Shown: piece by piece, positions 52,495 through 54,166 of the stretch
Numbering within the stretch: the stretch's first letter is position 1
Layout: every line of letters starts with the position of its first letter
Assembly (NCBI GenBank): GCA_964539505.1
Contig: CAZIJS010000006.1
Span: 1 to 54,166, forward strand
Direction: 5' to 3'
Length of the DNA: 54,166 nt
Origin: an uncultured Myxococcales bacterium
Lineage (GTDB): Bacteria; Myxococcota_A; Polyangia; HGW-17; SLPX01
The notes under the pieces: model-generated
Told to the model about the DNA's origin: nothing
Database searches by the model: none
The model's input: only the letters and a program-made list of their open reading frames with translations
Translations under genes and position numbers: made by a program

Positions 52495-52510
52495 CGGATC
52501 GATTCTTGCT
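52495..52510 (+). promoter_or_regulatory. Putative sigma54 (-24/-12) promoter of the pilX cluster
   Basis: CGGATCGATTCTTGCT has GG-N10-GC spacing with TTGCT at -12, 47 nt upstream of the pilX start. Confidence 0.4.
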
Positions 52511-52557
52511 TAACAACTGAGCAAACATTGGATTTCTTCGATTCTGGAGGAAAGATC

Positions 52558-53166
52558 GTGCCACGTCCATTGCCACCCAACAAGGCCACCCAGCGACAAG
52601 AAGGGTTTTCGCTCCTGGTGGTGTTCCTCATTCTTTCGGTCATGGCGGCTGCCGCCATGGCGGTGCTCATGACCACCAGGACGGACATCAAGGTGGCGGG
52701 CCACGAAAGAGAACATGCCGTGGCATTCTACGCTGCCGAGGCTGCGCTGGCGTACGGCAAGGCCGAGTTGCTCCCGAAATGGAGCACGACACAAAAATGG
52801 ACCCCAGTCCTCAAGACGAGCAGCTACCGGGCGGGCGTCACCAGGGACTACCGATTCGGCGGCAACGGACTGCCCTCCATCCGCGCCACCTACACCTTCC
52901 GATTCGTCAACAACAGCGACGACCCCAGCGGAAAAGCCGACACTGACTCGGACGGCAGGGTGGTCATCGTGGGGATCGGCAGGGTCTACGACGCCGGCGG
53001 CAGGAAACTCACGGCCACGGTGACCCTCCAAAACGAGGTGGAATGGCACGTCCAGGCAGCAGGAGCCGGAGGCTACCAGGCCCAGCCCAACCAGGATGTC
53101 TCGGGCTCGGCCAGGAAACATCCCGACACGGCGGGGGTTCAAATGAACTCTTCGTCGTTCCTGTAG
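52558..53166 (+). CDS. pilX: Type IV pilus minor pilin PilX-like
   Basis: Prepilin cleavage site QEG|FSLLVVFLILSVM (no Glu5, as is typical of PilX), AFYAAEAAL motif. GTG 52558 after GGAGG. Confidence 0.8.
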   Translation: MPRPLPPNKATQRQEGFSLLVVFLILSVMAAAAMAVLMTTRTDIKVAGHEREHAVAFYAAEAALAYGKAELLPKWSTTQKWTPVLKTSSYRAGVTRDYRFGGNGLPSIRATYTFRFVNNSDDPSGKADTDSDGRVVIVGIGRVYDAGGRKLTATVTLQNEVEWHVQAAGAGGYQAQPNQDVSGSARKHPDTAGVQMNSSSFL

Positions 53167-53205
53167 GCAGAAATACCCACCCTCGAAGGTGGTGAGGAGA
53201 CAGCC

Positions 53206-53760
53206 ATGAAAAAAGTAGCCATCACAGTTCTCCTGGCAGCCGTGACATGGGTCCCCATGAAGGCCCAGGCCTACGATCGATACGCCCGGGGAAGGACCCT
53301 CTACTTTCGGCGCTGCGGCCCCTGTTTTAGCATGGGCTGGAAATGGGCACCCAAACCCCTGCCCAAGCCCCTGGACCTCACGAAGATGGCCAAGACATGG
53401 ACCCCGGCACAGGTTTGCACCTGGATGCGCGCAAACAAGAAGAAATTGGTGCCTCCCGGCTGCTACCCCGGACACATCAGTCAGCGTGAAAAGCTCGACA
53501 TTCTGTACTACGTCAAGCGCAAGACCGAAGGACCCATCCACAAACCCATTCTCAAGGCCATCTTCCGGAGGTACCGCCACAGGATTCATCTCAGGCACAC
53601 AACCCTGGCCAAGAGACGTTCTGCATTGCGCACTTATAAAAACATGAAAGAAATGCGGCGACTCCGGCGCCGCCGGACCAGACGGCATCCCAGGTGGAGC
53701 GGCAGCATCACGGCACCCACCCATGCTCCCACAGGAAAGACGAGGAGGTCGGCCAGATGA
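53206..53760 (+). CDS. Secreted cytochrome-c-fold protein, TfcP-like, with CxxCF instead of CxxCH
   Basis: Signal peptide AQA|, GRTLYFRRCGPCF, PLDLT, TWM, PPGC, ISQREKLDILYYV, basic C-terminal tail. Lies between pilX and a pilY1-like gene. Confidence 0.65.
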   Translation: MKKVAITVLLAAVTWVPMKAQAYDRYARGRTLYFRRCGPCFSMGWKWAPKPLPKPLDLTKMAKTWTPAQVCTWMRANKKKLVPPGCYPGHISQREKLDILYYVKRKTEGPIHKPILKAIFRRYRHRIHLRHTTLAKRRSALRTYKNMKEMRRLRRRRTRRHPRWSGSITAPTHAPTGKTRRSAR

Positions 53761-54166
53761 GACGCATCGTCAGCATGACCCTGGTCCTGTCGGCAATGGG
53801 ATGGCTCCTTGTTCCGGGCAGTTCCTTGGCTGCCAACCCCTATTGTTTCAACTACCTGGACCGAACAACCTACGACAGTGGTTTTTCCGACGGCGACTTC
53901 GATGCCCGCACGGACGTCAACATCGACAAGGGAAAGCTGGTGCTGGAAACCGACGACAAAAAGCTCGGAGACACCAACCGGATCATGGTGCGCACGCGCC
54001 AGGACATGAAAATTTACTACCTGTACGAATCAGCAGGCGGCAGCCACACCCTGGGCTGGTTCCTCTGGGACGACAACGTCAAGAAATATACCCTGCCCTC
54101 CGGCTGGAACTACACCACCACCACCTGCTCGTCGGACTCGGACTGCGATCCGGGCATGCGCTGTCT
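53757..54166 (+). CDS. Secreted PilY1-like/DUF4114-type adhesin, N-terminal part (runs off window edge)
   Basis: Not in the ORF track. ATG 53757 overlaps the previous stop (ATGA) and follows GAGGAGG. MRRIVSMTLVLSAMGWLLVPGSSLAANPYC...YLYESAGGSHTLGWFLW...CSSDSDCDPGMRC, open to the end. Confidence 0.65.
   Translation, partial: MRRIVSMTLVLSAMGWLLVPGSSLAANPYCFNYLDRTTYDSGFSDGDFDARTDVNIDKGKLVLETDDKKLGDTNRIMVRTRQDMKIYYLYESAGGSHTLGWFLWDDNVKKYTLPSGWNYTTTTCSSDSDCDPGMRC

Follow-up and report, generated by a model that had tools for sequence, protein, structure and literature searches.

A TfcP-like, cytochrome c-derived protein without the heme histidine, probably heme-less, encoded between pilX-like and pilY1 genes in an uncultured order of Myxococcia

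Introduction

What becomes of a cytochrome c in a pilus operon when the histidine that would hold its heme is missing? The question is raised by the far end of a 54,166-nucleotide stretch of DNA from an uncultured Myxococcales bacterium (positions 1-54166 of contig CAZIJS010000006.1, here C6, in assembly GCA_964539505.1), the whole of which we call the window. Its last 1.6 kb hold three genes on the plus strand, namely a pilX-like minor pilin gene, an open reading frame (ORF) for a protein of 184 amino acids (aa), and the start of pilY1. In the 184-aa protein, the motif CGPCF stands in place of the CxxCH of cytochromes c. The initial annotation, made from the DNA letters, had taken the protein for an orthologue of TfcP that either lost heme and uses two disulfides among its four cysteines, or binds heme through an undescribed ligand set.

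In Myxococcus xanthus, PilY1.1 is stabilised by TfcP (Mxan_0363), a non-canonical cytochrome c with His/Cys ligation (Herfurth et al. 2022, PMC8833165). Besides a signal peptide, TfcP comprises a CxxCH motif, the distal Cys91 and a charged C-terminal extension. It resides in the periplasm outside the pilus, and its stabilising effect on PilY1.1, seen at low calcium, comes from stimulated calcium binding at a DxDxDNxxD motif; the authors describe TfcP as an inert cytochrome, for whose heme they propose a structural role only, and a direct contact between TfcP and PilY1.1 is not demonstrated in that study (PMC8833165). The tfcP gene lies immediately upstream of pilY1.1, an arrangement typical of that cluster type (PMC13190605). 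The TfcP-like module as such is thus already known, while our literature search found no relevant description of a heme-less TfcP, of a heme-less TfcP-like form or of heme-less cytochrome c-like proteins.

Our analysis leads us, with moderate confidence, to view the 184-aa protein as a heme-less, disulfide-held, TfcP-like periplasmic helper of PilY1, which would descend from a His/Cys cytochrome c encoded in the same operon slot.

Results

The histidine-less motif is real and conserved

Phe41 is neither chance nor error. Its codon, TTT at 53326-53328, differs by two changes from CAT or CAC, as had been noticed in the initial annotation, and follows the codons of Cys37 (53314-53316) and Cys40 (TGT, 53323-53325); the additional Cys71, Cys86 and His90 are all present behind the motif. 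That a single base error is improbable here is borne out by contigs of two runs from two studies, X1 (2018) and X2 (2025), which agree over 53100-53900 apart from one G>A at 53607 in X2, a comparison of assembled contigs rather than raw reads, in which one may be the window's own source. The 2018 run is labelled as a hydrothermal vent metagenome. Stronger evidence against an error comes from conservation. The first search yielded 18 homologues, in which C37, C40, C71 and C86 are invariant and position 41 is F, I, V or A; among all 29 homologues with these four cysteines, the position is occupied by F (13), L (5), V (4), T (3), I (2), A (1) or M (1), and by His in none. The conservation of the His-less CxxC within a clade, for which the initial annotation had proposed an alignment, thus holds throughout this form, whose members fall into one group of the tree.

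A decaying cytochrome relic, or a sequencing error at codon 41, has the missing His in its favour and nothing else. We regard it as practically negligible, since every member has an intact frame, the 18 homologues, with identities down to 34%, share 29 invariant columns, the contigs of the two studies agree, and the His-less state is conserved across the order.

Descent from a class I cytochrome c

The 184-aa protein by itself matches no Pfam family at E up to 1, PF00034 included, and no NCBIfam model; a TfcP model was likewise not found among the NCBIfam matches. Its ancestry emerges from profiles. We refer to the alignment of the 18 four-Cys homologues as A1 and to that of ten CxxCH proteins (nine search matches and the cluster member P0040) as A2. 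Searched against 1.84 billion representatives, the A1 profile found 23 proteins at E up to 0.001, comprising further members of the same kind, two with a single motif Cys, and nine small CxxCH proteins (E 1.9e-7 to 2.8e-4). The invariant residues of A2 include C36, C39, H40 and C85, and there is no Met at the distal position, which is the rare His/Cys layout. Aligned to each other by hhalign, A1 and A2 match with a probability of 99.1% (E 6.6e-19, 123 columns), such that CxxCF falls onto CxxCH and Cys86 onto the invariant distal Cys. Conversely, the CxxCH profile has the window gene as its sole match in the window genome at E up to 0.01 (E 4.1e-15), and it matches His-less genes in three other genomes with E of 1e-14 to 1e-15. 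Five of the eight CxxCH relatives scanned pass the PF00034 cut-off, and the A2 profile reaches ordinary PF00034/PF13442 proteins at about 1e-8; the His-less P0011, P0021, P0029 and P0035, like the window protein, match no Pfam family. Because A1 aligns to A2 and members of A2 match PF00034, common descent with that family follows, and an origin of the 184-aa protein from class I cytochrome c, as originally proposed, is supported at the sequence level.

Predicted structure points in the same direction. The full-length model is poor (mean predicted local distance difference test score, pLDDT, 66), and the model of the domain alone, residues 23-118 built with 38 sequences, reaches a pLDDT of 87.7 and a predicted template modelling score (pTM) of 0.77. 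A fold search of the domain model against representatives (VIA) returned 120 chains with Z of at least 2 and none with Z of at least 5, and among the best 50 of these 120 rows at least 48 carry titles of c-type cytochromes or of enzymes containing a domain of this type. 8hn3_B ranks first (Z 4.7, root-mean-square deviation, rmsd, 3.4 A over 65 residues) and the TsdA heme domain, 4v2k_A, second (Z 4.5, rmsd 3.2 A, 67 residues). With Foldseek, neither model had a match at E up to 0.001; the best rows for the domain model are cytochromes c6, with E of 1.3 or worse. In the feature search of the Atlas, the domain falls among c-type cytochrome clusters (score 0.96), with 27 of 30 matches in one family set. 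Against PDB sequences, the A1 profile has weak cytochrome matches (8qk0_A, E 0.08; 5b6q_A, E 0.69) along with three ribosomal proteins, which are drawn by the basic tail.

Three forms in one operon slot

Among 62 family sequences in total, with the motif of locus L128 read separately at the locus, three forms can be told apart. In the CxxCH form (n = 19), position 41 is His, Cys71 is absent (0/19) and so is Trp47 (0/18 aligned). The four-Cys form (n = 29), to which the window protein belongs, combines CxxC and a residue other than His with Cys71 and Trp47, each in 29/29. The two-Cys form (n = 14) has A or S at position 41, L or M at position 37, neither Cys71 nor Trp47, and extra aromatics (CAMWW). 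Cys86 is found in 62/62 sequences, and Cys40 in all that align there. The two-Cys clade (L109-L115, L117-L120, L129; P0029, P0035) belongs to another family of the window's order. Only Cys40 and Cys86 are left in it, accompanied by the motif L(A/W)(E/R)CAMWW, and neither the charged helical tail nor the place between pilX and pilY1 has changed; judged by sequence, it is probably a second heme-less solution within the same order.

In an unrooted tree built with the trait columns removed, a branch with a support of 92 (Shimodaira-Hasegawa-like approximate likelihood ratio test, SH-aLRT) separates the 43 His-less sequences from the others; the four-Cys group has 97 and the two-Cys group 96. Two trait changes in all, the minimum, are needed on this tree, and a tree of 41 rows agrees. 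As the 43 His-less sequences group together, one loss of His is enough; its direction rests on CxxCH being the general state of cytochromes c.

The forms are distributed along lines of kinship, consistent with vertical inheritance within a single uncultured order. By contig numbers and coordinates, the genomes of loci L003 and L004 belong to the window's family and that of L005 to its order; L003 and L004 are labelled Myxococcota, class Myxococcia. Counted with the four-Cys profile among relatives at E up to 1e-5, the family is present in 2/2 genomes of the window's own family and in 4/5, 9/14 and 1/1 genomes (14/20) of three other families of the order, compared to 0/18 genomes spread over 14 further families of the class. 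The four-Cys form accounts for the strong matches (E 1e-49 and below), and most of the weak ones coincide with two-Cys loci. In a thin sample of the whole phylum, only the window genome matched (1/401). His-less forms dominate the window's own order of Myxococcia.

What is constant across the three forms is the slot. A PilY1 orthologue is encoded directly downstream in 29 of 30 loci with a family member (10 CxxCH, 7 four-Cys and 12 two-Cys). In the window, the PilY1 beta-propeller assumed by the initial annotation is indeed found: the pilY1 product, which contains YLYESAGGSHTLGW, matches PF05567 with E 4.6e-10 (39.4 bits against a cut-off of 28.1) and additionally DUF4114, and it has a C-terminal site resembling a calcium motif, DTDGDGFSD, at residue 938. 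Such a C-terminal DxDxDGxxD-like motif is kept in all complete PilY1 orthologues checked. At L071, the locus of the CxxCH protein P0028, the full order is present, consisting of a pilX-like gene, P0028, PilY1 with YVYESAGASHTFGW, and pilV, pilW and fimU-like genes, where the stop of the P0028 gene and the start of pilY1 have one base in common; at L070, the end of the CxxCH gene is followed by PilY1 and pilV. In the CxxC-nonHis loci L003, L004 and L005, the PilY1 directly downstream is 51-68% identical to that of the window.

A search of 300 genomes of the class to which the L003 genome belongs gave numerous full-length matches, and 34 of the places were inspected. At 23 of them, a family member is immediately followed by a PilY1 orthologue (profile E 0 to 1e-82), and the remaining 11 are generic cytochromes without PilY1. 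With a profile made of the window ORF and two orthologues, a pilX-like ORF was found to adjoin the small gene on its upstream side in 20 of the 23 further loci; a 21st match lies elsewhere in its locus (L107). The sole family locus without PilY1 is L069, a contig of 1843 bases that may be chimeric. Its CxxCH member, P0031, runs in frame (25-846) into a sequence resembling the C-terminal half of a resistance-nodulation-division (RND) membrane fusion protein, in either a chimeric assembly or a real fusion. A further candidate locus, L072, proved to be a spurious pattern match with many stops.

Fate of the heme and role of the cysteines

Three observations suggest that heme is probably gone from the four-Cys protein: position 41 varies among non-ligand residues, the family has no invariant ligand column, be it His, Met or Lys, and the cluster contains no dedicated lyase. 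The genome carries two Cytochrom_C_asm genes, so that the organism should still be able to make cytochromes c and the loss of heme would be specific to the 184-aa protein. Of the two outcomes offered in the initial annotation, heme loss with two disulfides is thereby favoured, in view of the variability of position 41, the occurrence of Cys71 in 29/29 four-Cys as against 0/19 CxxCH members, and the sister clade.

The other outcome, in which heme would stay bound through an unusual ligand set, for instance by the CxxC thioethers with only the Cys86 thiolate or a conserved Tyr ligated axially, fares worse. It would account for the retention of the thioether Cys pair and the distal Cys in 29/29 members, and it could draw on the invariant Tyr33, Tyr101 and Tyr102 of A1 and on the cytochrome c maturation genes of the genome. 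However, seven different residues, all non-ligands, occur behind the second Cys, and His90, which the initial annotation had listed among the additional residues, is not conserved, with H in only 2/41 family sequences, so that it drops out of any new ligand set. The gain of Cys71 and Trp47 is also better explained by a filled pocket, and the known exceptions to CxxCH, CXXCK and CX15CH, need dedicated lyases (PMC3601427), for which the cluster has no gene. We therefore consider retained heme highly improbable.

How, then, might the four cysteines be used? Cys71 is present in 29/29 sequences of the His-less form that keeps Cys37, compared to 0/33 others, and the two-Cys sister clade has neither Cys37 nor Cys71. 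Because Cys71 covaries with Cys37 in this way, the most likely disulfide pairing is Cys40-Cys86 together with Cys37-Cys71; alternatively, 37-40 may be paired along with 71-86. Disulfide-forming machinery is well represented in the genome, with 12 matches of DsbA-like type and 2 of VKOR, of which two seem to be fused or to lie side by side.

Alternatively, the four invariant cysteines could form a tetrathiolate site for Zn or another metal that takes over the structural role of the heme, two of them standing in a CxxC as in many zinc knuckles. We judge this very unlikely, since the two-Cys clade manages with two cysteines, a second CxxC is missing, and the protein is apparently exported by Sec into a periplasm rich in disulfide machinery. 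An Fe-S cluster was likewise thought unlikely on general grounds, as the signal peptide has no twin-arginine motif.

CGPC is also the active-site tetrapeptide of thioredoxin. This opens a further view, in which the cytochrome c fold has turned into a private periplasmic thiol-disulfide oxidoreductase or isomerase for a Cys-rich PilY1, with C37-G-P-C40 cycling and Cys71-Cys86 being structural. In line with it, C-x-P-C (including the CGPC of the window, 53314-53325) occurs in 19/29 four-Cys members versus 0/18 CxxCH members, and PilY1 is richer in Cys beside four-Cys genes than beside CxxCH genes, with Cys-rich inserts in the window, L003, L004 and L005. Per 100 aa, PilY1 has 1.17-2.12 Cys at four-Cys loci (six genes that are complete or almost so; a partial one has 5.6), 1.07-1.49 at two-Cys loci and 0.80-1.32 at CxxCH loci. 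Yet this trend is weak because the genomes are related and not independent samples, the Pro is absent from 10/29 four-Cys members, no chain with a thioredoxin fold is among the fold matches listed, and the two-Cys sister clade occupies the same slot next to the same PilY1 partner without any CxxC. On balance, we find the redox function unlikely and the heme-less, disulfide-held protein preferable.

Relation to TfcP and other known proteins

Compared to TfcP as it is described, the window protein shares the signal peptide, the small domain of class I cytochrome c type, a Cys in place of the distal Met, the charged C-terminal extension, a gene position just ahead of pilY1 among minor-pilin genes, where stop and start overlap, and the class Myxococcia. 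Unlike TfcP, it has no His after the CxxC, possesses the extra invariant Cys71 and Trp47, has a longer and almost purely basic tail, and separates the first from the distal Cys by 49 rather than 60 residues. Among the features given for the TfcP family that we compared, a single CxxCH motif is the only one it does not have, with CGPCF in its place (PMC8833165). That the two may be kin is thus suggested by their architecture, by the distal Cys, which is rare, by gene position and by taxonomy, TfcP being compared by its description.

A direct counterpart was sought with the PF05567, A2 and A4 profiles in ten large genomes, where no protein fitting TfcP (C31xxCH, Cys91, 153 aa) was found. Several candidates were set aside. 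The small CxxCH ORFs at the best 29 loci of an A2 profile search over 301 Myxococcota genomes were NorC-like diheme proteins, and several of these loci had none; 11 full-length-looking places held generic cytochromes without PilY1; three further candidates were canonical Met-type cytochromes; and the 153-aa CxxCH protein of L108 has a Cys spacing of 57, not 60.

The resemblance to TfcP could also be convergent, or the role unrelated to PilY1, with the basic tail binding, for instance, an acidic polymer or the membrane. This would be consistent with the lack of a direct link to Mxan_0363 and with the composition of the tails. In the window protein, the tail from residue 118 comprises 67 aa with 24 K+R (36%) and a single D/E, and four-Cys members in general have tails of 61-111 aa with 26-50% K+R, far more basic than the 9-30% of CxxCH members (tails of at least 15 aa). 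On the other side stand the strict synteny and start/stop overlap with pilY1 (29/30 loci) and the continuum from CxxCH to His-less forms in the same slot, which argues for a conserved, PilY1-tied role; we thus rate convergence or an unrelated role as quite unlikely.

As a side observation on the C-termini, nearly all of P0001-P0043, in all three forms, end in a short basic motif (RRSAR, RRSRR, RKSK, GQGDHR), which may be a conserved C-terminal signal.

Close to the window protein are the uncharacterised CxxCH proteins of the same slot in uncultured Myxococcia (P0027, P0028, P0032-P0034, P0036, P0037, P0039-P0043; L070, L071, L101-L105, L107, L108, L128). They are homologous to the window protein by the A1-A2 alignment, have the same neighbours and an orthologous PilY1 with a YESAG.SHT.GW motif, and differ in keeping CxxCH, in being without Cys71 and Trp47, and in their short, Pro-rich tails. 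A Cys at the distal-ligand position is further known from the His/Cys c-type cytochromes TsdA, the SoxA family and DsrJ; unlike these heme enzymes of sulfur metabolism, the window protein is without the proximal His and encoded in a pilus operon. A precedent for a cytochrome c fold without heme is provided by the heme-free cytochrome c-like domain of quinol-dependent nitric oxide reductase (3AYF/3AYG), of which 3ayg_A appears at rank 8 of the fold matches (Z 3.8, with a very wide chain range). In contrast to that domain, which is part of a membrane enzyme, is not known to be disulfide-based and has no link to pili, the window protein is predicted to be free in the periplasm.

The locus and its surroundings

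The gene layout given by the initial annotation, a secreted 184-aa ORF at 53206-53760 between a pilX-like gene and a pilY1 gene that overlaps it by ATGA, is reproduced in the ORF listing; the features are collected in Table 1. Coordinates are those of the window. The contig extends beyond it to 62182, and we refer to C6:52000-62182 as locus L002 of the window genome, G000.

Table 1. Features at the end of the window, with positions on contig C6
Feature	Position	Strand	Description and basis
pilX-like minor pilin gene	52528..53166	+	212 aa from TTG 52528, alternative GTG start at 52569; ORF listing
GAGGAG, ribosome-binding-site-like hexamer	53194..53199	+	6 bases ahead of ATG 53206; read from sequence
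Gene of the 184-aa TfcP-like protein, heme-His-less, of supported cytochrome c descent	53206..53760	+	ORF listing, homologues, hhalign to CxxCH relatives
Predicted Sec signal peptide, residues 1-22	53206..53271	+	cleavage after AQA; judged by eye from sequence
C37-G-P-C40-F41, former CxxCH heme-attachment motif	53314..53328	+	Phe replacing the proximal His; sequence, aligned onto CxxCH
Trp47	53344..53346	+	only in the four-Cys form; alignment of family forms
Cys71	53416..53418	+	only where His41 is absent and Cys37 kept; alignment of family forms
Cys86	53461..53463	+	aligned with the distal heme-ligand Cys of CxxCH relatives (invariant Cys85 of A2); alignment
Basic C-terminal extension, partly helical	53560..53757	+	composition; helix 134-160 in the full-length model
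pilY1 gene, 5' part	53757..54166	+	ATG overlaps the stop of the 184-aa gene (ATGA, 53757-53760); gene ends at contig position 57236

On the extended contig, the cluster has the order pilX-x-pilY1-pilV-pilW-fimU. The assignment of its first gene draws on a weak PilX_N match of the 212-aa ORF, which at E 0.0065 and 16.9 bits stays under the cut-off of 25.5 in the Pfam scan. Downstream of pilY1 follow a pilV-like gene, PilW (PF16074, E 6.2e-15) and a GspH/FimU-like gene, and then a Ser/Thr kinase with receiver domains. The N-terminus of the 184-aa protein consists of MKK, a hydrophobic run and AQA ahead of Y23, and the signal peptide region is modelled as a helix (residues 3-14) in the full-length model.

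Some further observations concern the surroundings. A Ser/Thr protein kinase adjoins the minor-pilin cluster both in the window contig (L002 7432-10182), where it lies downstream and has receiver domains, and in the CxxCH locus L071 (3070-5283, minus strand), where it lies upstream on the opposite strand. From the first base past the window, 100 N (L002 2168-2267; C6 54167-54266) interrupt pilY1 and leave 34 PilY1 residues unread. The PilY1 proteins of the four-Cys loci, those of the window, L003, L004 and L005, have Cys-rich inserts that are absent from the L071 PilY1; the insert of the window protein (L002 about 2550-2660; C6 about 54550-54660) is rich in Cys and Arg with 7 Cys, in addition to an N-terminal C..C..C module. 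Finally, an ORF of 404 aa runs antisense to the pilX-like and 184-aa genes (52510-53724, minus strand), which we take as a by-product of the G+C-rich coding strand.

Discussion

What can be proposed about the role of this protein? In the scenario that we moderately favour, the 184-aa protein would serve the tip module of the type IVa pilus as an accessory protein in the periplasm. Its ancestor would have been a small class I cytochrome c with His/Cys ligation, encoded between pilX and pilY1 as in related bacteria. In the lineage of the window the proximal His would have been lost, so that heme is presumably no longer attached; instead, the fold would be held by two disulfides in the pairing proposed above, and added aromatics such as Trp47 would fill the former heme pocket. 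The protein may meet newly exported PilY1 transiently and stabilise it or assist its calcium binding, at a stage when PilY1 and the minor pilins have not yet entered the pilus machine. A TfcP-like helper role is suggested by the gene order, the translational coupling, the published work on TfcP and the DxDxDGxxD-like site of PilY1; by this analogy, the role is probably the same as that of TfcP, now exerted independently of heme.

Several points weigh against this scenario. Variants of M. xanthus TfcP that are unable to bind heme are unstable and inactive (PMC8833165). Both cysteines of the CxxC are kept in 29/29 four-Cys members, with Pro enriched between them (19/29), so the motif may itself still take part in some chemistry. 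Judged by their absolute scores, the fold matches are weak, with Z at most 4.8, Foldseek E above 1 and a template modelling (TM) score of about 0.45. Among the large (9-12 Mb) genomes of Myxococcota and Myxococcia examined, none gave a TfcP-like match to the CxxCH profile, and a small CxxCH gene stands beside pilY1 in 0/17 other Myxococcota PilY1 loci; the published TfcP may therefore be a distant relative only, or stem from a separate recruitment of a cytochrome c.

For TfcP itself, the idea of a structural heme could not be put to a clean test because the heme-site mutants are unstable. Here, an order of uncultured Myxococcia seems to provide a natural experiment, in which the heme-holding His is gone from the same operon slot in two ways, one with four cysteines and one with two. 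If these proteins are indeed heme-free and still support PilY1, it would be the protein surface or the tail that carries the function, and not heme or redox chemistry. A series graded from the heme form through four-Cys to two-Cys would likewise offer material on how a cofactor-dependent fold can be rebuilt without its cofactor. The TfcP-like module would also be widened beyond the cultured Myxococcales covered in the 2022 paper (PMC8833165). The finding is of interest to research both on type IV pili and on the evolution of cytochromes c.

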